From the NCBI GenBank assembly GCA_034435835.1, contig DAOTWF010000017.1, forward strand, positions 145,113 through 209,112: a DNA stretch of 64,000 bases. The letters are read 5' to 3'. Of this stretch, positions 2,112 to 42,206 are shown one piece after another. Source of the DNA: Dehalococcoidia bacterium (GTDB lineage: Bacteria > Chloroflexota > Dehalococcoidia > GIF9 > UBA5629). Within the stretch, counting starts at the first letter, position 1. Each line of letters starts with the position of its first letter. The notes under the pieces are model-generated. The model was not told the DNA's origin and ran no database searches. It worked only from the letters and a program-made list of their open reading frames with translations. The position numbers were made by a program, and so were the translations under genes.

Positions 2112-3467
2112 CTACTTGCGCCGGAACTGCCTTCTTAATTGTTCGATGGAATGTGAAAGGTCGGAGTCGGTCTTGATGCTCTGTGATATGCGTTGGAGGT
2201 TGCGCAGTATGGTCGAGTCATCTCTGTTGAGCAGGTTACCTATTTCAGTGAGACTGTAATGTTTTTCCTGGCGCAACAGATAGATGACCACCTGTCGCGC
2301 CAAGGTGGCACGTTTGTCCCGCTGTTTTCCCAGTATGACGTCAGGGCTTATGCCGTAATAAGTGGCTACGGCGTCTATCACCAGCTTAGGGGTAAGTGCT
2401 GCTGGGAGCGAGCTCTTTCTCTCGCTCATGTCAGCCAGAGCCTGGAGCGCCATGGTCGTCTCCACCTTACTAGCTCCCGAGAGCTTGGCGTAGGTGAGCA
2501 CACAGTTAAGGGCGCCCTCCAGCTCGCGTACACTGGATTTGAACTGAGTTGCCAGAAGGCGGAGCACTTCGCTGGGTACCACCGTATTGGAGGCGGCTGT
2601 CTTTGCCGTAAGGATGGCGACGCTGGTTTCAAAATCTGGTGGTGACAGGCGGACAACCAGCCCGCCGACAAGGCGGGAGCCCAGCTTGTTGTTGACCGCA
2701 GGTATGGTCTTGGGCAGGCAGTCGGATGTCATCACCATCTGTCCCGAGTTGTAGTACAGGTCATTAAAGATATGCACCAGGAACTCCTGTGTCTGCGTTT
2801 TGCCGCTGAGGAACTGCACGTCATCTATAAGCAGGAAGTCGGTGTTCCTGAAGTGGTCGTGGAACTCATCGATGCTGTTGTTTTTCAGGGCGAGTACGTA
2901 CTGGTTGGTAAACTGCTCAGCGGTGGTGCATATCACCTGGAAACCTCTGGAGCGGGCGGTGTGCGCGATGGCATGTAGCAGGTGCGTCTTCCCTGTGCCT
3001 GTATCCCCGTAAATGAACAGAGGGTTATATTTGGCGCCGGGTGATTCCAGGACCTCAAGGGCAGCGGCGTAGGCTATGCGGTTGCACTCTCCGGGGATAA
3101 AGGTCTCAAAGGTATAACTAATCTTGAGGCGCTCTGGCTTGGTACGGGGCGGCGTCTTGGTCGTTGTGCCCCCGTCGGCATAGGTCTGCGGCTGGGAAGG
3201 CGCTGGCTCGCCGGGAAGCACTGTGAACTGGACATCAACGGTCCTGCCTATCACATTGCTCAGCGTCCGCCTGATCAGGGGGTTGAGTCGCTCCCGCAGC
3301 CATTCGGCAACGAAGGCATTGGGCACACCTACAACGAAGCTGTCTTTTTCAAAGCTTACGCCCTTGGTGTCCTTAAGCCAGGTATCGAAGTTCGGTTTGC
3401 TTACCTGTAGTTGTAGTTGTTCCAGTGCGCTCTGCCAAATTTTTTGCGGCATATCAATGATCTGCAT
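2112..3467 (-). CDS. dnaA: chromosomal replication initiator protein DnaA
   Basis: 451 aa. N-terminal DnaA domain (WQSALEQLQLQVSKPNFDTWLKDT). AAA+ Walker A GDTGTGKTHLLHAIAH. C-terminal DNA-binding helix region (LTEIGNLLNRDDSTILRN). Confidence 0.95.
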   Translation of the reverse strand: MQIIDMPQKIWQSALEQLQLQVSKPNFDTWLKDTKGVSFEKDSFVVGVPNAFVAEWLRERLNPLIRRTLSNVIGRTVDVQFTVLPGEPAPSQPQTYADGGTTTKTPPRTKPERLKISYTFETFIPGECNRIAYAAALEVLESPGAKYNPLFIYGDTGTGKTHLLHAIAHTARSRGFQVICTTAEQFTNQYVLALKNNSIDEFHDHFRNTDFLLIDDVQFLSGKTQTQEFLVHIFNDLYYNSGQMVMTSDCLPKTIPAVNNKLGSRLVGGLVVRLSPPDFETSVAILTAKTAASNTVVPSEVLRLLATQFKSSVRELEGALNCVLTYAKLSGASKVETTMALQALADMSERKSSLPAALTPKLVIDAVATYYGISPDVILGKQRDKRATLARQVVIYLLRQEKHYSLTEIGNLLNRDDSTILRNLQRISQSIKTDSDLSHSIEQLRRQFRRK

Positions 3468-27820: not shown

Positions 27821-28480
27821 TCAGTGACATTCGTGTTCTTCAACTTTGAAAAAAAGCAGCGGGTAGATGATGTCGCTGAAACAGCAGGGAAGCCAGACCG
27901 TCAGGAAGAGGAAGATGAACACGAAGTGCAGCAGGGGTAGCCACTCGGCTACTCCGAAGGCAGTGAAGTATACCAGCGAGGCGTAGGTGCTGAGCAGCAC
28001 GTGCAGAGCGTGCGGCCCCCTGGTCATCGGTCTCAAGTACCCGATGGCGATGCCCAGAAAAGCCACCGGGTTGATGAGCCACCACTTTTCGATGAAGCCA
28101 ATATGCAGCGATATCTGCACGCGGAAAGACTCAGCCCCCAGGTAAGGGATGACGGAATCGCTGATGGTGGCGATGCCCACAGAACCGGTATAGCCGATGA
28201 GCACCGCTGCCCAGAGCTTGCCCGGCTTATACCTGCGGTATATGGCGGTGGTGACGATGGCGCTGAACAGGATGTGGGCTGGATGAAGGACATAGAAGGC
28301 GATTTCAGAAACAGCGGCGGGGATCCTTGTTAGCACAATTATTACCATCAGCACGATGCCGGTGACGGCGCCGAGAGCGGTGAAAGGGGCATGCCTGGCT
28401 AGCTCTAGGGCTATCCTCTTCGCCATGCCTGCCGGTTTCGCTTTTGCTTCAGCCTGGCTCATTTCTGACATCCGGCGCAC
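27821..28480 (-). CDS. hypothetical polytopic membrane protein, His/Cys-containing, co-oriented downstream of the Fur-family regulator
   Basis: 219 aa, about 6 TM segments. His in TM regions (HPAHILF, HALHVLL). C-terminal CCFSD...EEHECH. Overlaps the regulator gene's 3' end by 22 nt, so probably co-transcribed. Confidence 0.5.
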   Translation of the reverse strand: MRRMSEMSQAEAKAKPAGMAKRIALELARHAPFTALGAVTGIVLMVIIVLTRIPAAVSEIAFYVLHPAHILFSAIVTTAIYRRYKPGKLWAAVLIGYTGSVGIATISDSVIPYLGAESFRVQISLHIGFIEKWWLINPVAFLGIAIGYLRPMTRGPHALHVLLSTYASLVYFTAFGVAEWLPLLHFVFIFLFLTVWLPCCFSDIIYPLLFFKVEEHECH

Positions 28481-28884
28481 ACTCCGGAAAACTCTGAGAA
28501 GTGCTGTTCAGTGCGGAACCCCAGCCTTTCAGCCATCTCGGTCTCCTCAGCGCACAGGGCTTCGCTGGCATACTCCTTTAGCATGCCACATTCTCTACAG
28601 ACCACAAACCGGTGGCAGCCGTCAGCTTCGTTCAGACTGCAGATAATAAAGCCCCCAGCAAGCAGCACCTTATGCGCTAGATTCAAGGAGCACAGGAGCT
28701 CCAACACACGGTAAATGGTCACATGGTTTAGGTGCTCACCCTTCTCTTTCAGTATATCCTGTATCTCATACGGCGATAGCGGTTGCTGCGCCTCAGTTAG
28801 CACTCTCAGCACCTGTCTCCGCGGCGCAGTTATCCGGTACCCCCGCTCTCTCAATAGCTTCAGCGCCCTACCGACTTCTATCAT
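28459..28884 (-). CDS. Fur-family metalloregulator (probable Zur)
   Basis: 141 aa. Winged-helix N-terminus plus Fur metal-binding Cys pairs (CHRFVVCRECG, CAGCQ). Confidence 0.85.
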   Translation of the reverse strand: MIEVGRALKLLRERGYRITAPRRQVLRVLTEAQQPLSPYEIQDILKEKGEHLNHVTIYRVLELLCSLNLAHKVLLAGGFIICSLNEADGCHRFVVCRECGMLKEYASEALCAEETEMAERLGFRTEQHFSEFSGVCAGCQK

Positions 28885-28914
28885 GGTAATATTCTATACC
28901 ATCTGAGTGTTAGA

Positions 28915-28929
28915 TGCAATATTATTGCA
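28915..28929. promoter_or_regulatory. 15-bp perfect palindrome TGCAATATTATTGCA upstream of the Fur-family gene: candidate autoregulatory operator
   Basis: Read directly in the divergent fur/marR intergenic region. It shares TGCAAT/ATTGCA half-sites with the palindrome at 38329-38342. Confidence 0.5.
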
Positions 28930-29069
28930 ATAACCATCGCGTTAAGGTTTTGTGCTATGGTGTGGTTCGTCTGGTTTGCCCCGCGGGGCGAATGCTGGTA
29001 AAATGGTTTGCACTATTAACTGTTATCTAAGTCAACTAAAGTTGCCATTGAAAGCAGTGAAGGCGAGGC

Positions 29070-29516
29070 TTGATCATGTCTGGTGAGGACGCTGAATACA
29101 TAGTTGAGGAGCTTTTTCATCTATTTCCGGTCATCGGCAAGAAGCTGCTGAGGGTGCAACTTAATGGTGCCACAGGCAGGCTTTCCCGCCTTCACCTGGC
29201 GGTTATGCGCACGTTACAGGAGGAGAGCCTGACGGTTTCCGAGCTGGCGCGGCAGCTGGCGGTGCCGAAACCGCAGATGACCCGTCTTATAGACCATCTG
29301 GTGCGGCTGAACATAGTTGCCCGGCAGCCTGATGCCAGGGACAGGCGGGTGATCAACATCTCGCTCACGGCTAATGGTAGGGCTGCCCTTGAGGAATACC
29401 GGCAGGTGATGAAACAGTCGATTAAGGAGAAACTTTCCTATCTTGCCCCGTCAGACCTGGCGGAGCTATCGGTTTTGCTGGCGAAGCTGAAAGAGATCGG
29501 AGCGAAGTTGCCATAG
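29070..29516 (+). CDS. MarR-family transcriptional regulator
   Basis: 148 aa. Winged HTH (LTVSELARQLAVPKPQMTRLIDHLVRLNIV). Confidence 0.85.
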   Translation: MIMSGEDAEYIVEELFHLFPVIGKKLLRVQLNGATGRLSRLHLAVMRTLQEESLTVSELARQLAVPKPQMTRLIDHLVRLNIVARQPDARDRRVINISLTANGRAALEEYRQVMKQSIKEKLSYLAPSDLAELSVLLAKLKEIGAKLP

Positions 29517-29525
29517 GAGACTGAT

Positions 29526-31169
29526 TTGGAGACACAGGCTGAATACCGTCCACTGGGCTTCAGTGCCCTGCCCCGCCGGCAGGTGATGTTTACTTTTGGC
29601 GGCGTGCTCATGGCAATGTTCCTCGGGGCGGTGAGTCAGACGGTGATCGGTCCGGCGATGCCGCGGATTATCGCCGACTTGGGTGGTTTTCAACAGTACA
29701 CCTGGGTGGCTATTGCGCATACTGTGGCTTCAGCAGTCGCCATCCCCATAGTAGGCAAGCTTACCGACATGTATGGCCGCAAATATTTCTACCTCGGCGG
29801 CATAGCCATTTACACTTTGGCATCTCTGCTCTCCGGGTTGAGTACCACCATGAACCAACTCATCATCTTCAGGGCACTTGCTGGCATCGGTGGCGGGGCG
29901 ATGATGTCCAATGCCATTACCGTCATCGGCGACCTGTTTCCGCCAGCGGAGCGTGGCAAGTATCAGGGATTCACCAGCGGGGTCTTCGGGGTGTCATCGG
30001 TACTCGGTCCCACGCTGGGCGGATTTCTTACCGACACCCTTTCTTGGCGTTGGGTATTCTTCTTCAGCGTACCCCTTGGGCTGCTGGTCATCATTGTGTT
30101 TATCTTCGTCTTTCCCCATGTCCGCCCGGACAATCTGAAGCACAAGATAGACTATGCCGGGCTGACGACCCTGGTGCTTGCCATAGTTTCGCTGATGCTG
30201 GCGCTGTCACTTGCCCGTGTGGAGTATGCCTGGGACTCGCCGCAGATACTGGGTATGTTCGGCTTTGCCGCTACAATGCTCATTATATTTGTATTGATAG
30301 AGCGCCGTGCCCAAGAGCCCATCCTGCCTCTGTGGATGTTCAGAAACTCCATTATATCCGTTTCGGCGGTGGTGGTTTTCGTTACCGGTCTGGGAATGTT
30401 CGGCAGCCTCATTTTCCTGCCGCTTTTCTTTCAGGGTGTGCTCGGGGTGACGGCAACGGTGAGCGGCAGTTTTATGATACCAATGAACCTGGCATTGATC
30501 GCCGGCAGCTTTGTCTCAGGGCAACTTCTTTCTCGCGCCGGGGGACATTACCGCATTCAGGGTACTGCGGGCATTGTAATCATGGGCGTCGGCATGTGGC
30601 TTCTGGCAAGAATGAACACCGCCACGGAATACTGGGCGGCTGTGGCATATACGGTGCTCACTGGCTTTGGGCTGGGCATTACCATGCCCCTTTATACCAT
30701 CGCTGTCCAGAACGCAGTCCCTTACAGTGTGCTGGGTGTGGCTACCTCTTCCACCATGTTTTTCCGTTTTATCGGCGGTTCGGTGGGCCTGGCTCTGCTG
30801 GGCTCGGTAATGAGCAGCCGTTTCGCCAGTGAACTAACTGCCCGACTGCCGTCCGGTATTGCGGGGATGATACCGCCGCAGGCTATAAGCTCTCTGGCAA
30901 ACAACCCTCAGGCACTGGTCAGTCCTGAGGCGCAGGTGAGGTTGCAGGACATGTTCTCCCGGATGGGATCGGCGGGTTCGGCGCTCTACGAGCAGACATT
31001 TCAGGCGTTGAGAGAGTCACTCAGTTCCGCTATCTCAGAGGCTTTCCTTGTTGCCGTTGTCGTCATGGTGATCGCCTTTGTGGTGAACTTCTTCCTCAAG
31101 GAGATCCCGCTCCGCAAACAGCACACCAATGAGATGTCTTTTCCCCAAAGGAAGCGAGGGGAAAACTAG
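29526..31169 (+). CDS. MFS transporter, DHA2 (EmrB/QacA) 14-TMS drug-efflux family
   Basis: 547 aa. TTG start 7 nt after AGGAG. MFS motif GKLTDMYGRK. 14 predicted TM segments. Paired with the MarR gene. Confidence 0.85.
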   Translation: METQAEYRPLGFSALPRRQVMFTFGGVLMAMFLGAVSQTVIGPAMPRIIADLGGFQQYTWVAIAHTVASAVAIPIVGKLTDMYGRKYFYLGGIAIYTLASLLSGLSTTMNQLIIFRALAGIGGGAMMSNAITVIGDLFPPAERGKYQGFTSGVFGVSSVLGPTLGGFLTDTLSWRWVFFFSVPLGLLVIIVFIFVFPHVRPDNLKHKIDYAGLTTLVLAIVSLMLALSLARVEYAWDSPQILGMFGFAATMLIIFVLIERRAQEPILPLWMFRNSIISVSAVVVFVTGLGMFGSLIFLPLFFQGVLGVTATVSGSFMIPMNLALIAGSFVSGQLLSRAGGHYRIQGTAGIVIMGVGMWLLARMNTATEYWAAVAYTVLTGFGLGITMPLYTIAVQNAVPYSVLGVATSSTMFFRFIGGSVGLALLGSVMSSRFASELTARLPSGIAGMIPPQAISSLANNPQALVSPEAQVRLQDMFSRMGSAGSALYEQTFQALRESLSSAISEAFLVAVVVMVIAFVVNFFLKEIPLRKQHTNEMSFPQRKRGEN

Positions 31170-37327: not shown

Positions 37328-37621
37328 CTAGTGAGCGGGCAAAATCTCGATCGCCCGCTCCACTATTTCCACCTCGGGATAGTTCTGGGTGATGAAGTTC
37401 ACCGCGCGGCTGAGTATTTCGTCAACGTGCTGGTCGTGGTTGCTCACACACGCTATACCCAGAGTTGCCATCTGCCAAAGGTCGAGGTCGTCTACCTCGG
37501 CTATGGAGATGTTATACTGGCTGCGCAGGCGGGAGATTATGGACTTGACTGTGCGCCTTTTGTCCTTAAGTGACTGGCTTCCGTGGAGGTGGAGCCTTAT
37601 CTGACAGATGCCCGCGTTCAT
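37328..37621 (-). CDS. DUF503 (YlxP-like) family protein
   Basis: 97 aa. Begins with a hydrophobic core ICQIRLHLHGSQSLKDKR, characteristic of DUF503. Confidence 0.65.
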   Translation of the reverse strand: MNAGICQIRLHLHGSQSLKDKRRTVKSIISRLRSQYNISIAEVDDLDLWQMATLGIACVSNHDQHVDEILSRAVNFITQNYPEVEIVERAIEILPAH

Positions 37622-37680
37622 TTCTTCAAGCCAGCGCCCTCGGCGGGGGAGTGACTGAGGGCGCCTTTTTTATCTAACTG

Positions 37681-37971
37681 CTACTTGCGTTTCTTTTCGG
37701 CATAGCAGGTGCTGCAGTAAACCGGGCGGTCATCCTTAGGTTCGAATGGTACCTCACACTCGGCGCCACAGTTGGCGCAGACTGCCTGGTACATCGTCTT
37801 TGATTGACCGTAGCCACGGTAGCGACTCTGTCGCCTGGCTGCCCGACATTCGGGGCAGCGACCGGGTTGGTTCTGTAGCCCTCGCGACCGATAGAACTCT
37901 TGCTCACCGACGGTGAAGACGAAGCTTCTCCCGCATTCGGAGCAAGTAAGGGTCTTGTCCGCTAGAGCCAA
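37681..37971 (-). CDS. zinc-ribbon domain protein (two CxxC...CxxC pairs)
   Basis: 96 aa. TTG start 7 nt after AAGGAGG. CSECG...CPEC and CANCG...CSTC. Confidence 0.7.
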   Translation of the reverse strand: MALADKTLTCSECGRSFVFTVGEQEFYRSRGLQNQPGRCPECRAARRQSRYRGYGQSKTMYQAVCANCGAECEVPFEPKDDRPVYCSTCYAEKKRK

Positions 37972-38291: not shown

Positions 38292-38342
38292 TTGACACAA
38301 CCATCCCTTGATGTTATACTATTGCTACTGCAATTGATTGCA
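38292..38342 (+). promoter_or_regulatory. sigma70-like promoter (TTGACA-17-TATACT) followed immediately by the palindrome TGCAATTGATTGCA: candidate Zur-type operator for the downstream ICMT-ABC transporter operon
   Basis: TTGACA at 38292-38297, TATACT at 38315-38320 with a 17-nt spacer. ATTGC half-site at 38321-38325. Palindrome TGCAAT-TG-ATTGCA at 38329-38342. Confidence 0.5.
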
Positions 38343-38631
38343 ATCACGAGTATTAGCATCCAGGCAAATTGGTTGAGGCAAAGAGGTGACTATTTTTCGG
38401 ACAGGTCTGAATCGGGGTACGGGTGCGGTGACGATATGGATTGAGGCGGCTTGTGGTTTGAGGCCGATCCTGGCGTGTGCCGCCTTGAAGGTGTGAGGGA
38501 GTTTGCCCAGATGTTGCTCGATTTCTATCAGTCCAGTATGGAAGAGAAGAAAACAGTGGCAGAGGTTTCCGAGAATTTGCTGCGGCAGGCGCTGGAGGGG
38601 TGGGAAGGTGACCGAAGTGGAGGGGAATAAC

Positions 38632-39117
38632 GTGCTGGACTGGTATGCTAGGAACAAGTTTCTGGTGGGGATGACAATTGAGTTTCCCGTGCTTATCCTT
38701 GGCGGGCTAGCAGGGATGGCATTTTCCTTGCTGAAGCTGCACCTTTTCCCTTGGGTAAACGCTATAGGTTTAGTGTTCTTGGCGGCTGGCTATGTGATCC
38801 ATCTGGGCTACGCCCATGGGGAGTTTAAAAAGCTGGGCGTCGCGCCTCATGGCAAAAGCGGTATACCTGAGGTGCTGGTGACCTCTGGCATATATTCCAG
38901 AATCAGGCATCCGGGGTATCTGGGCTTGATCCTGATTTATTTCGGTCTAGCCGTTATCTTTGGGACCGTCTGGATGCTCATCCCTGCGGCGCTTTTTGCT
39001 ACTCTGACCGGCATGACGGCTTTGAAAGAGGAAAGACTGTTGAAGCAGCACTTCGGGGAAAAGTACGAAGAATATGCGGCTAAGGTGCCTTGGCGGTTTA
39101 TCCCAGGGGTATTCTAG
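38632..39117 (+). CDS. isoprenylcysteine carboxyl methyltransferase (ICMT/PEMT) family membrane methyltransferase
   Basis: GTG start after GGAGGGG. The ICMT family C-terminal motif RHPGYLG...EE. The track ORF extends upstream to 38503. Confidence 0.7.
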   Translation: MLDWYARNKFLVGMTIEFPVLILGGLAGMAFSLLKLHLFPWVNAIGLVFLAAGYVIHLGYAHGEFKKLGVAPHGKSGIPEVLVTSGIYSRIRHPGYLGLILIYFGLAVIFGTVWMLIPAALFATLTGMTALKEERLLKQHFGEKYEEYAAKVPWRFIPGVF

Positions 39118-39149
39118 TCAACGGCGGAACAAATAAGAAGGAGGTAAAA

Positions 39150-39995
39150 ATGAAGTCAAAACTCTGGCTGATTACCATAGCGGTGGCTGTAGCCCTGTTA
39201 GCAGGGCTGCCTGCGTGCACCCCTGCTTCCGCTGACGTTGTGGCAGGCTCTTCGCACATCGCCAACATCATCGCCGACGTCTCCGCCGGCAAGCTCAAGG
39301 TACGGGTGCTGATACCGCCGGAGGCATGTCCGGGGCATTACGACATTAAGCCGGGGGACATCGCGGCGCTGACGAAATCAAAAGCGCTCATAATCCACGA
39401 TTACCAGCAAAACATGAAAAATGTCACCTCTGCTATCGAGGCGGCTAAAAACCCCAACCTTATCGTCAAGGTTGTCGAGGTTAAAGGCAACTGGATGGTG
39501 CCCTCGGTGCAGGCTGAGGGGGTGACCAAGGTCGCCGAGATACTGGCTGGGTTAGACAGAGAAAATGCCGACTTTTACCGTCAACGTGCTGAGCAGAGGA
39601 AGAGGGAAATCTTAGCTAAAGGCGATGAGGTGAAGAAGCGGCTGGAGGCGGCAAACTTAAGCCAGGTGAAGGTGATATGTGCAGACAAGCAGCTCGGTTT
39701 TGTAAAATGGGCGGGGTTTAACGTGGTTGCCAGCTATGGCCGCCCCGAGGAGCTTAGCGTCGGCGACGTGGAGAAGCTGGTGAAGCAGGCGAGGGAGGCT
39801 GGAGCGGTGTTGGTCATCGATAACCTGCAGAGCGGCGCCACCGCCACCAGTGAAGCCATGGCGAGGGATATCGGTGCGGTGCAGGTGACCATCTCCAACT
39901 TTCCCGGTGGGCTTAAGGGGACTGAGAGCTGGGAGAAGGCGATGGACAGGAATGTGGAGCTGCTGTTTGGGGCTTTAGACAAGGTAAGGAAATGA
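39150..39995 (+). CDS. metal (Zn/Mn) ABC transporter substrate-binding lipoprotein, TroA/ZnuA family
   Basis: ATG at 39150 after AAGGAGG. Signal peptide with an LPAC lipobox. Cluster-9 SBP-like fold residues (HIANII, CPGHYD). Confidence 0.82.
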   Translation: MKSKLWLITIAVAVALLAGLPACTPASADVVAGSSHIANIIADVSAGKLKVRVLIPPEACPGHYDIKPGDIAALTKSKALIIHDYQQNMKNVTSAIEAAKNPNLIVKVVEVKGNWMVPSVQAEGVTKVAEILAGLDRENADFYRQRAEQRKREILAKGDEVKKRLEAANLSQVKVICADKQLGFVKWAGFNVVASYGRPEELSVGDVEKLVKQAREAGAVLVIDNLQSGATATSEAMARDIGAVQVTISNFPGGLKGTESWEKAMDRNVELLFGALDKVRK

Positions 39996-40774
39996 TGGAT
40001 GGGGCTGTTATCAGGCTGAAAGACGCCGTGGTCTCCTACCGGGAGGACGTGGCGCTTGAGGGGGTGTCGCTGGAGGTGATGCGGGGGGAGTTTGTGGGCA
40101 TCATCGGGCCCAACGGTGCCGGTAAGACCACGCTGCTCACCGTCATCAACGGGTTGGCACGGCTGGTGCATGGTGAGGCATGGGTGCTGGGGATGAGGGT
40201 GGACAGGAGGAACGGGATTGAGCTACGGAAGCGCATCGGTTATGTAGCCCAGGTGGAGAACATCGACCCCCGCCTTCCCATCAGCGTCCGCGAGACGGTG
40301 CTGGTGGGGTGTTATGGCAAGCTGGGCTTTTTCCGCCGCCCCACAAGAGCCGAGCGGGAGGCAGTGGACCATGTGCTGGAGCTTGTGGGCATCAGCCACC
40401 TGGCGGAGCGCCCCGTCGGACACCTCTCAGGAGGGGAGTACCAGAGGGCAGCCATCGCCCGGGCTCTGGTGCAGCAGCCGGAGATACTGCTATTGGACGA
40501 GCCCACAGCCTCTCTTGATCCGCCGGCGCAGAGGGACATTTTGAGCCTTGTCCAGCTCATCCATGCGCAGCAGCACATCACCACCCTCTATGTCACCCAC
40601 GACCTCAGGACCTTGCCCTCCGTGTGCCAGCGGGTGGTGATGATGAGGGACGGCAGGATATGGCGGCAGGGCAGCCCCGATGCTGTGCTGAGGGCGGAGG
40701 TGCTCGCTAAGCTCTACGGGGCTCCGTCGTCGGTGGAACCGGATGGCAGCTGGTCAACGAGGTCAGTCAGGTGA
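39992..40774 (+). CDS. metal ABC transporter ATP-binding protein (ZnuC-like)
   Basis: 260 aa. Walker A GPNGAGKTT, ABC signature LSGGEYQR, Walker B LLLDEP. Confidence 0.9.
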   Translation: MMDGAVIRLKDAVVSYREDVALEGVSLEVMRGEFVGIIGPNGAGKTTLLTVINGLARLVHGEAWVLGMRVDRRNGIELRKRIGYVAQVENIDPRLPISVRETVLVGCYGKLGFFRRPTRAEREAVDHVLELVGISHLAERPVGHLSGGEYQRAAIARALVQQPEILLLDEPTASLDPPAQRDILSLVQLIHAQQHITTLYVTHDLRTLPSVCQRVVMMRDGRIWRQGSPDAVLRAEVLAKLYGAPSSVEPDGSWSTRSVR

Positions 40775-41610
40775 ACATCCTTGAATACCAGTTCATGCAG
40801 AATGCCGTCATCGCCGGGCTGTGCGGGGGGATTACTTGTGCTGTGGTCGGTGTCTTTGTGGTCACCATGCACCTCTCCTTCATCGGTGTGTGCATCGCCC
40901 ATGCTGCCTTCGCCGGCGCCCTTCTGGGCGTCTGGGCGGGCTTTGACCCGCTTCTGGGGGCGCTGGTTTTCAGCCTTATCGCCACCGCCGTCATCGGGCC
41001 GCTGGCGGACAGAGGGGAACTCAGCCCGGACACTTCCATAGGCATAGTCTTCTCGCTGATGCTGGGGCTGGCTTTCCTGTTTATGGGGCTAATGCCCGGG
41101 GCGAGGACGGAGGCGCTGAACCTTTTCTGGGGCAGCATCCTGACGGTTAGCCGCCGCGACCTCATCTTCTTAGGCGCGGTTGCCCTAATGATGATCGGGC
41201 TGGTGGCTGCTTTCTACAAAGAGATTATGGCGGTGGTCTGCCATAGACAGGTGGCGGTGGCGGTGGGCATACCGGCGGCGCTGGTGTTCTATGGTATACT
41301 GTTCGCCACTGGTGTCACCGTCACCGCCTCGCTGCAGAGCATTGGCGGGCTCCTGGTCTATAGCCTGATACTGAACCCGGCGGCAGCGGCTTACCAGCTT
41401 ACTTATAACCTCAAGCGCATGCTGCTCATCGCCTCCTCCTTCGGCATACTCTCCTGCTGGGCGGGATTGGCGGCATCTTATCTGTTTGACCTACCCTCGG
41501 GTGCCTCCATCGTAATAGTCTCCTCAATAATTTTTGGGCTGGCGGTTGCCTTTTCGCCCAAGAGGAAGGTGCGGCGCTGGCAGGAGAAGCCGCTCACGGC
41601 AGGGGAGTGA
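40771..41610 (+). CDS. metal ABC transporter permease (ZnuB-like, ABC-3 family)
   Basis: 279 aa. 8 TM profile typical of ABC-3 permeases. Translationally coupled to the ATPase gene. Confidence 0.88.
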   Translation: MNILEYQFMQNAVIAGLCGGITCAVVGVFVVTMHLSFIGVCIAHAAFAGALLGVWAGFDPLLGALVFSLIATAVIGPLADRGELSPDTSIGIVFSLMLGLAFLFMGLMPGARTEALNLFWGSILTVSRRDLIFLGAVALMMIGLVAAFYKEIMAVVCHRQVAVAVGIPAALVFYGILFATGVTVTASLQSIGGLLVYSLILNPAAAAYQLTYNLKRMLLIASSFGILSCWAGLAASYLFDLPSGASIVIVSSIIFGLAVAFSPKRKVRRWQEKPLTAGE

Positions 41611-42206
41611 TGTCAATGTCCATACGGGAATATTTCAACAGCAAGGCGCCTGTTTGGGACGAACTCATCGCCGAGAAGAGCACCGCCAAACTAAGTGCTC
41701 TGGCTGCCCGGCTGGGCGTTGCATCTGGCTCGTGGGTGCTCGATGTCGGCACCGGCACCGGCGTCTTTGTGCCCTACCTCCTGGAAAAGATAAACGGCGG
41801 TAAGCTGGTCTGCGTGGACATTGCTGAGGAGATGCTGAAACGGGCGCGGGCTAAGAACTTTCCCGGAAATGTAGAGTACCTGCACGGCGATATTACCCAG
41901 TTGCCCCTGTCCGACGGTATCTTTGATGCTGTGGTCTGTTATTCCAGCTTCCCGCATTTTAGGGACAAGCCCCGGGCACTTGCCGAGATGATGCGGGTAT
42001 TGAAGGAAGGCGGCAGGCTGTTCATCTGCCACAGCGCCAGTCGTGAGGAGATAAACAATATCCATCGGAGTATCCATGCTGTGCAGCATGATATCCTCCC
42101 AGATGGTGCCGAGATGTACCAGATGTTGCGGGTAGCCGGCTTTGGTGGCATCGAGGTGGAGGACGCCCCCACGGGCTATTTCGCCGCTGCGGTTAAATGC
42201 CGGTGA
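41607..42206 (+). CDS. class I SAM-dependent methyltransferase
   Basis: 199 aa. Motif I VLDVGTGTG. Methyltransf_11-like. Confidence 0.85.
   Translation: MMSMSIREYFNSKAPVWDELIAEKSTAKLSALAARLGVASGSWVLDVGTGTGVFVPYLLEKINGGKLVCVDIAEEMLKRARAKNFPGNVEYLHGDITQLPLSDGIFDAVVCYSSFPHFRDKPRALAEMMRVLKEGGRLFICHSASREEINNIHRSIHAVQHDILPDGAEMYQMLRVAGFGGIEVEDAPTGYFAAAVKCR

Follow-up and report, generated by a model that had tools for sequence, protein, structure and literature searches.

The closest described counterparts of the locus treated here are Fur-family repressors and the metal transporters under their control. In the Zur-znuABC system of Escherichia coli (PDB 4MTD; PMC4219657), a Fur-family-type operator overlaps the promoter of a cluster A-I ATP-binding cassette (ABC) importer made up of a binding lipoprotein, an ATPase and an ABC-3 permease, and the zinc-sensing site B of Zur consists of His77, Cys88, His96 and Glu111 (PMC4219657). 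Nur of Streptomyces coelicolor represses nikABCDE, nikMNOQ and sodF and has a footprinted binding site, the Nur box tTGCaa-N5-ttGCAA (PMC2691836); according to one review, its nickel site may be a crystallisation artefact (PMC7055735). In export, CzcN and NccN are proteins of the isoprenylcysteine carboxyl methyltransferase (ICMT) family in metal-resistance clusters of Cupriavidus (PMC7563307). The present analysis concerns a 64-kb window, i.e. the whole analysed stretch of 64,000 nucleotides from contig DAOTWF010000017.1 of a Dehalococcoidia bacterium, and in it an operator, termed box 2, which overlaps the promoter of an operon encoding an ICMT-like protein, a ZnuA-type binding lipoprotein, an ABC ATPase, an ABC-3 permease and a second methyltransferase. 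A similar operator, box 1, precedes a Zur-like Fur-family gene 10 kb away, and around 170 related loci (L-numbers) were fetched for comparison. The initial annotation had taken box 2 for a second copy of box 1 within one Zur regulon for zinc import. By position and conservation, box 2 is a real Fur-family-type operator, and we favour, at a probability of roughly 60 %, that it serves a Nur-like, probably nickel-responsive repressor which controls a non-zinc ABC importer, distinct from the Zur box.

The promoter was read from the sequence and recovered by a promoter scan. On the plus strand, the -35 hexamer TTGACA (38292-38297) and the extended -10 element TGtTATACT (38312-38320, with TG at 38312-38313 and TATACT at 38315-38320) are separated by a spacer of 17 nt and agree with the consensus at 11 of 12 positions, in addition to the TG of the extended -10. 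Directly 3' of the -10 element lies the operator array ATTGCt-ac-TGCAAT-tg-ATTGCAAT (38321-38344), composed of ATTGC (38321-38325), TAC, TGCAAT (38329-38334), TG and ATTGCA (38337-38342), ATTGCAAT running to 38344; the initial annotation had described promoter and motif in the same way. The core palindrome TGCAAT-TG-ATTGCA (38329-38342), its cores 4 bp apart, covers roughly +2 to +16 relative to the inferred transcription start. Promoter and array are kept in four close relatives, the window, L004, L171 and L173, which have in common the -35 hexamer (TTGACA, in L004 TTGACG), the extended -10 element TGnTATA(C/G)T and the array rTTGCt-nn-TGCAAT-nn-nTTGCAAT. The distance from the -10 element to the core palindrome is 8 nt in the window and L173 and 15 nt in L004 and L171; the core is thereby located at about +2 to +16 or at about +9 to +23. 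Both positions are within the footprint of the polymerase, therefore occlusion is the natural reading of repression. An inverted repeat inside the RNA polymerase footprint that is kept in orthologous loci is what characterises a Fur-family-type operator overlapping a sigma-70 promoter, and the earlier proposal that a repressor bound to the palindrome would block RNA polymerase is supported by the position of the operator, the core of which is retained in 10/10 loci.

The array resembles the classical Fur box in its three alternating hexamers (direct, inverted, direct), which could admit more than one dimer. It differs in presenting ATTGCA hexamers with 2-bp spacers, an 8-bp register, whereas the classical box consists of contiguous GATAAT hexamers. 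The pattern TGCAAT-N(1-4)-ATTGCA occurs twice in the 64 kb (at 28915 and 38329) against 0.00 expected from 100 shuffles, and the operator hexamer itself is scarce, with 15 copies versus 32 expected and 6/15 of these within the two boxes. A chance palindrome without function could point to the small size of the motif and to nothing else; two occurrences against none expected and a position kept in every orthologous locus effectively refute it, and it deserves practically no weight.

Box 1, AGATGCAATA-T-TATTGCAATA (28912-28932), covers the -35 region of the Zur-like gene's promoter. Its palindrome TGCAATA-T-TATTGCA has the half-sites of box 2, and in this respect the initial annotation holds; the spacing from the TGCAA to the TTGCA core is not shared, being 5 bp in box 1 and 4 bp in box 2. 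The 5-bp spacing was found in 64/64 distinct upstream regions of Zur-like orthologues, and 5' of the gene in nearly all of the 80 Zur-like loci, TAATGCAAyA-w-TrTTGCATTA covers the -35 region of a TATAAT promoter. The 4-bp spacing was present in 10/10 operon sites of the Dehalococcoidia orthologues and in 5/5 upstream regions of Nur-like genes; every relative carries TGCAAT-nn-ATTGCA or a one-mismatch variant, either 5' of the ICMT-like gene or, if this gene is absent, 5' of the binding-protein gene. Across 1.38 Mb of fetched DNA, all perfect 4-bp sites (13/13) were 5' of the transporter operon, and for 58/60 perfect 5-bp sites the start codon of a Zur-like gene followed at a distance of 35-55 nt. 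As controls, spacings of 3, 6 and 7 bp were counted and gave 2, 1 and 2 sites.

A matrix scan of the window, as the initial annotation had suggested, was run with scoring matrices from which the window's own sites had been left out. Each matrix found exactly one site, box 1 and box 2 falling into different classes. With the 5-bp matrix, box 1 scored 30.9 bits, the next best match 3.6 and the best match overlapping the box 2 region (38309-38329) 1.2 bits. The 4-bp matrix from other genomes gave box 2 as its sole match in the window (24.1 bits); a matrix restricted to genomes with the Nur-like gene in cis scored box 2 at 21.3 bits, the next best match at 11.1, the shuffle maximum at 16.2 and box 1 at 2.9. 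No further members of either regulon were found in the window, the next-best matches of the matrices being at background. Since the spacing never mixes and neither matrix scores the site of the other class, box 1 and box 2 represent two operator classes and not copies of one; box 2 lacks the 5-bp cores of the Zur autoregulatory box. The pattern suggests that two Fur paralogues are separated by a fixed 1-bp difference in half-site spacing, without exception in about 80 loci.

The initial annotation thus has to be revised in its central point. A single Zur regulon, with the window's Zur-like protein binding both boxes and the operon as a zinc importer derepressed at zinc limitation, would agree with the identical half-sites, with a Zur-like gene as the only Fur-family gene in the window, with the zinc-sensing ligands of E. 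coli Zur in its product, with the placement of the binding protein in Pfam ZnuA and with the lack of a Nur-like gene adjoining the operon in the window lineage. Apart from the unmixed spacing classes, it is opposed by three observations detailed below: orthologous operons are headed by the other paralogue together with CooT, the binding protein has lost the zinc ligands, and Zur-like orthologues carry a canonical ZnuABC or a 219-aa permease of their own. We regard a single Zur regulon as unlikely.

A scan of the genome collection with the ICMT-like family returned 80 loci, the close relatives being Dehalococcoidia. The linkage of the ICMT-like and znuA-type genes, which the initial annotation had wished to see examined in related genomes, was recovered, among Dehalococcoidia relatives with a contig running on 3' of the ICMT-like gene, in seven loci (L004, L005, L006, L008, L009, L011, L013), where this gene is followed by genes for the binding protein, ATPase, permease and methyltransferase; it is absent from L163-L170, and L003 is an exception without transporter genes 3' of the ICMT-like gene. 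In L010, the contig ends within the permease gene. Directly 5' of the operon, a Fur-family gene on the same strand was present in L006, L007, L008, L010 and L011, followed by two small genes. One of them, between regulator and transporter, codes for a CooT nickel chaperone (PF10133, E 8e-20). The other codes for DUF8180 (PF26551), which is fused to the C-terminus of the regulator in L007 (5089-5754) and L010 (5062-5733) and forms a separate gene after the regulator in L006, L011 and L163-L168; with the motif LLxYWxxHNxEHxxEFxxWA, it may be a histidine-rich accessory or sensing domain of the regulator. The order in L163-L168 is regulator, DUF8180, CooT, binding protein, ATPase, permease and methyltransferase, without an ICMT-like gene, and in L169 and L170 the regulator is directly followed by the four transporter genes.

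This cis-encoded regulator is only about 31 % identical to the Fur-family protein of the window. Its best relative of solved structure is S. coelicolor Nur (3EYY), with 128 bits versus 98 for the next, hence the designation Nur-like. The Nur-like proteins retain H33/H81/H88/H90/H126, and their recognition helix NISTVYRTLELL is identical to that of Nur. Within the Nur M-site (His33/86/88/90), three histidines (H33, H88, H90) are retained; position 86 is G/S, and a His follows at 87. The parallel to S. coelicolor extends to a Fur-family repressor of a metal-uptake transporter, the identical half-site TTGCAA and the nickel context given by CooT. Here the spacing is 4 bp and the arrays comprise three hexamers, DUF8180 is fused to the regulator in some genomes, and the transporter is of the ABC-3/ZnuA type and not NikABCDE or NikMNQO. 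Because each operator class precedes an operon led by the matching regulator gene, the most parsimonious assignment attributes the 4-bp class to the Nur-like and the 5-bp class to the Zur-like protein. Cross-regulation would be a variation of this assignment: both paralogues would bind both classes with different affinity, or each would repress the operon of the other, coupling zinc and nickel. The TGCAA/TTGCA half-site is common to both classes, both proteins carry the recognition motif T(V/I)YR, and S. coelicolor Nur prefers the 5-bp spacing, which is found here 5' of the Zur-like gene. Autoregulation of two operons, each led by its own regulator gene, is more parsimonious than such a scheme, and the strict 1-bp separation at every locus argues for insulation, not sharing; we consider cross-regulation rather improbable.

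The binding protein belongs to a distinct ZnuA/TroA subfamily (39150-39995, plus strand) and reaches 84.8 bits against the Pfam ZnuA cutoff of 29. Its scores for the ZnuA, AztC and MntC equivalogs were far under cutoff. It contains a Cys60-Pro-Gly-His63 (CPGH) motif, His83, Asn225/Gln227 and Asn250. In an alignment to Synechocystis ZnuA, the first zinc histidine only is retained (His63, in CPGH); the second position is Asn or variable, beside a conserved Met, and the third adjoins Cys177. The canonical positions therefore carry no three-histidine (or His/His/Glu/Asp) metal site in this alignment. The subfamily is small, with 773 representatives at E <=1e-3 among 1.84 billion sequences. Among 132 diverse full-length members, conservation was 98 % for Cys60, 100 % for Pro61, 89 % for His63, 95 % for Asp65, 84 % for His83, 98 % for Asn225, 97 % for Gln227 and 91 % for Asn250. 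An extracellular thiolate/imidazole site would plausibly suit nickel better than the hard His/Asp/Glu sites for zinc and manganese, and it would be plausible in a strict anaerobe. The many conserved Asn/Gln residues would also be compatible with a metal chelate as possible substrate.

Dehalococcoidia rely on nickel enzymes, namely [NiFe] hydrogenases and in many lineages carbon monoxide dehydrogenase/acetyl-CoA synthase. In the searchable literature, neither an importer dedicated to nickel nor a nickel sensor was found described for Dehalococcoidia, nor did the open-access literature yield anything on this cluster in Dehalococcoides or Dehalococcoidia. Four lines point to nickel as the most likely metal: CooT in the cluster, the likeness of the regulator to Nur, a half-site of Nur type and the binding-protein chemistry. 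For the first of these, nickel binding by CooT is cited in PMC6344411.

The preferred reading can be set out as follows. The repressor of box 2 would be a second, Nur-like Fur paralogue encoded elsewhere in the genome, not the Zur-like protein of the window. Loaded with metal, most likely nickel, it would bind the array ATTGCt-nn-TGCAAT-nn-ATTGCA, and with the stretch from the -10 edge to about +16 covered, RNA polymerase would be unable to form or to leave the open complex. At metal shortage, the site would be vacated and the strong extended -10 promoter would fire. A single transcript would then comprise the 290-nt leader and the genes for the ICMT-like protein, the Cys/His-type lipoprotein, the ATPase, the ABC-3 permease and the class I methyltransferase, whose products together would act as a high-affinity metal importer. 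Box 1 would serve independently in the autoregulation of the Zur-like gene, together with the gene of the 219-aa membrane protein. Conservation, position and class of both operators, the gene content, the linkage to the Nur-like gene, DUF8180 and CooT in relatives and the loss of the zinc ligands were observed; the protein bound at box 2, the metal and repression by occlusion are in this scheme what we infer.

Several observations weigh against this scheme. Of the nickel-site histidines of Nur, His126 alone is kept in the Nur-like proteins, His70 and His72 being replaced by Glu and Asp/Asn. The cores of the published Nur box are 5 bp apart, as in box 1 and not as in box 2; a 6-5-6 arrangement was found in none of the 4-bp class, 15/15 sites having 4 bp. 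The Nur-like gene, CooT and DUF8180 were not found in the 64-kb window, leaving the proposed regulator unseen in this genome, and the window lineage (window, L004, L171, L173) has lost the arrangement with a regulator in cis. The Tyr-Arg recognition motif recurs in the Zur-like protein, whose half-site is nearly identical, and this protein might bind box 2 more weakly. For the binding protein, Cys177 is conserved in just 63 % of the wider subfamily, and a single-sequence structure model reached a pLDDT (predicted local distance difference test) of 45, unusable for modelling a metal site. The metal specificity is read from gene context and ligand chemistry.

The gene content assigned earlier was confirmed by Pfam. 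The ICMT-like gene (38632-39117, plus strand) encodes a membrane methyltransferase of the ICMT/PEMT superfamily with 161 aa (PEMT 41.8 bits, ICMT 25.1 bits) and is followed, after a gap of 32 nt with AGGAGG inside, by the binding-protein gene. On the same strand, the ABC ATPase gene (39992-40774; ABC_tran E 1.3e-34; orthologues in relatives 59-82 % identical) overlaps with its start the stop of the binding-protein gene (ATGA), and the gene of the ABC-3 family permease (40771-41610; ABC-3 E 7.8e-56) overlaps the stop of the ATPase gene (GTGA). The initial annotation had regarded all genes as translationally coupled; start/stop overlaps do link binding protein, ATPase and permease, but not the ICMT-like gene to the binding-protein gene. 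It had also ended the operon at 41610. A fifth gene, for a class I S-adenosylmethionine (SAM)-dependent methyltransferase (41607-42206, plus strand; Methyltransf_11 E 5e-26), overlaps with its start the stop of the permease gene, therefore the operon ends at 42206; the intergenic region that adjoins contains a promoter-like site of its own. No operon protein reached an NCBIfam equivalog cutoff.

The most likely start of the ICMT-like gene is GTG 38632 (GGAGG 8 nt 5'; the N-terminus of the family aligns) or GTG 38608, and not TTG 38503 of the longest open reading frame (ORF). The transcript would therefore have a leader of about 290 nt (38345-38631, plus strand), which overlaps the ORF fragments 38451/38511-38630 and contains a block conserved at the nucleotide level (~38400-38530). 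This block of about 130 nt is conserved among the four close relatives (window 38345-38631, L004 5699-6010, L171 9955-10180, L173 95-370), and only there the leader is present. The reading frame is broken by indels of 1 nt in the window and 2 nt in L173, a large deletion in L171 fuses the leader to the ICMT-like gene, and L004 keeps an intact ORF of 80 aa. The block may represent a small gene in decay or else an RNA element not described so far. Three candidates were rejected: a DUF8180 remnant (LLDFY versus LLDYW; profile score ~0, E = 0.2 in a six-sequence database), a known riboswitch (no Rfam match at gathering score or at E <=5, except a spurious 29-nt match) and a small protein (no Pfam family matches the 80-aa version of L004; indels interrupt the frame in the window and L173, and in L171 it is deleted). 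The consensus fold of the four sequences was weak (-14.5 kcal/mol, covariation term -1.1).

A further alternative places the control outside the Fur family, either with an unrelated transcription factor reading the operator or with a riboswitch or attenuator in the leader as the real control. The conserved block and a regulator unseen in the window would be in line with it. Sites of the 4-bp class are found 5' of the Nur-like gene itself as well as of the operon headed by that gene, and the half-site is that of the Nur box; for leader control, the missing Rfam match, the weak consensus structure and the restriction to four close relatives count against it. We hold this alternative to be very improbable, more so than cross-regulation by the two paralogues.

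Under METHYLTRANSFERASES the ICMT-like protein and the class I SAM methyltransferase are considered together. The ICMT-like family has about 165 aa with invariant RHPGY, EE and H57/H62/H73 (three histidines in HLGYAH...AH). Both Pfam scores exceed their cutoffs (PEMT 25, ICMT 24), the RHPxY...EE...Y motifs are present, and a structure model (pLDDT 82) had the eukaryotic ICMT 5V7P as best fold match (probability 0.99, template modelling score 0.62). The ICMT equivalog NF040696 scored 44.6 bits against a cutoff of 160; by sequence and predicted fold, superfamily membership is all that is claimed. Distant homologues from archaea and other anaerobes gave no functional clue, since no neighbour family occurred in more than 3/39 neighbours. 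The initial annotation had considered an ICMT gene in a metal operon unusual. The gene is absent from L163-L170 and thus an optional insert of the cluster, and CzcN/NccN of Cupriavidus metallidurans (czc, ncc clusters) are a precedent, likened by family and context, for an ICMT-superfamily membrane methyltransferase-like gene inside a transition-metal transport cluster. Those clusters export metals by resistance-nodulation-cell division (RND) efflux and their proteins have ~216 aa, whereas the cluster described here would import and has a minimal 161-aa form with the invariant HLGYAH...AH. In L003 (2400-2640), the ICMT-like gene occurs with operator-like hexamers (ATTGCA...GTTGCTAATGCATACAATTGCA) and no transporter genes 3'; it can therefore be under this control alone.

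The constant oddity of the cluster is the second methyltransferase. The class I enzyme follows the permease in every locus reaching that far and is a constant partner of the transporter across Dehalococcoidia. It has conserved C.S.FPHF and CH..S motifs; profile and structure searches for a specific function returned only generic class I relatives.

The gene behind box 1, assigned to the Fur family by the initial annotation, is Zur-like. It encodes a Fur-family regulator (FUR PF01475) of 141 aa on the minus strand (28459-28884) with E. coli Zur, 4MTD, as best PDB match; in the alignment, H/C/H/E of site B and all four Cys of the Cys4 structural site are kept, and the M-site and nickel-site histidines of Nur are lacking. 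With 68.1 bits against the cutoff of 167 for the Zur equivalog NF008646, it appears as a divergent lineage and not a close Zur orthologue. A metagenome scan with this protein obtained 80 orthologous loci (54-82 % identical). Five loci (L124, L140, L144, L145, L161) have ABC ATPase and ABC-3 permease genes after the Zur-like gene. Of these, L140 alone was inspected; the binding protein encoded in between is a canonical ZnuA, in which the histidine motifs DPHTYE, DPHVWLSP and FHPAWSYF are all present. In the window, the Zur-like gene is co-transcribed, with overlapping ORFs, with the gene of a 219-aa membrane protein (27821-28480, minus strand) without Pfam or NCBIfam family. Most of the 80 loci have its orthologue after the Zur-like gene, with HPxH, PHAxH, CC and D/E motifs conserved to at least 95 %, and in the five loci named above the ABC genes take its place. 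The protein is a candidate for a new zinc uptake permease in the Zur regulon.

The resemblance to Zur-znuABC hence has two sides. Alike are the Fur-family-type operator over the promoter of a cluster A-I ABC importer, its gene set of binding lipoprotein, ATPase and ABC-3 permease, and the nearby Zur-like gene with an n-1-n palindrome. In contrast, box 2 belongs to another spacing class, the binding protein has no three-histidine zinc site, two methyltransferase genes are part of the operon, and Zur-like orthologues have their own uptake genes.

Box 1 is situated in a divergent intergenic region (28940-29516 area) shared with a MarR-family gene (29070-29516) and a gene for a transporter of the major facilitator superfamily (29526-31169). 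A zf_Tbcl and DUF503 gene pair with an adjacent helicase gene (37328-37971 in the window) is found ~2.5 kb 5' of the Zur-like gene in many relatives (L088-L149). In the window, this pair adjoins the ICMT operon; in L140, helicase, Zur-like gene, ZnuABC and ftsY are contiguous. This placement suggests a rearrangement in the window lineage that put the nickel-type operon and further genes in between. The remaining ATTGCAAT copies in the window lie within a kinase gene and between dnaA and obg. The copy at 1981 is without relation to the operators. Here the AT-rich stretch that separates dnaA on the minus strand (1854-2111, 2112-3467 region) from obg contains a DnaA-box-like TTATCCAGA at 2009-2017; this region may be origin-proximal.

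Taken further, the cluster could be a new kind of nickel importer of anaerobic Dehalococcoidia, composed of a cluster A-I/ABC-3 transporter with a CPGH-type binding protein, a constant SAM methyltransferase, sometimes an ICMT-like protein, and a Nur-like repressor, which DUF8180 and CooT often accompany and which would be insulated from Zur solely by the 1-bp difference in spacing. We put this forward tentatively, as a possibility that falls short of an even chance. If true, it would add a new Cys/His binding-protein chemistry and a new transporter class to nickel biology, and it would raise the question why a SAM methyltransferase is always attached. Whatever the metal, two Fur paralogues in one cell would use a common half-site and keep their regulons separate by one base pair of spacing. 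For annotation, the family names ZnuA or Zur do not always mean a zinc system.

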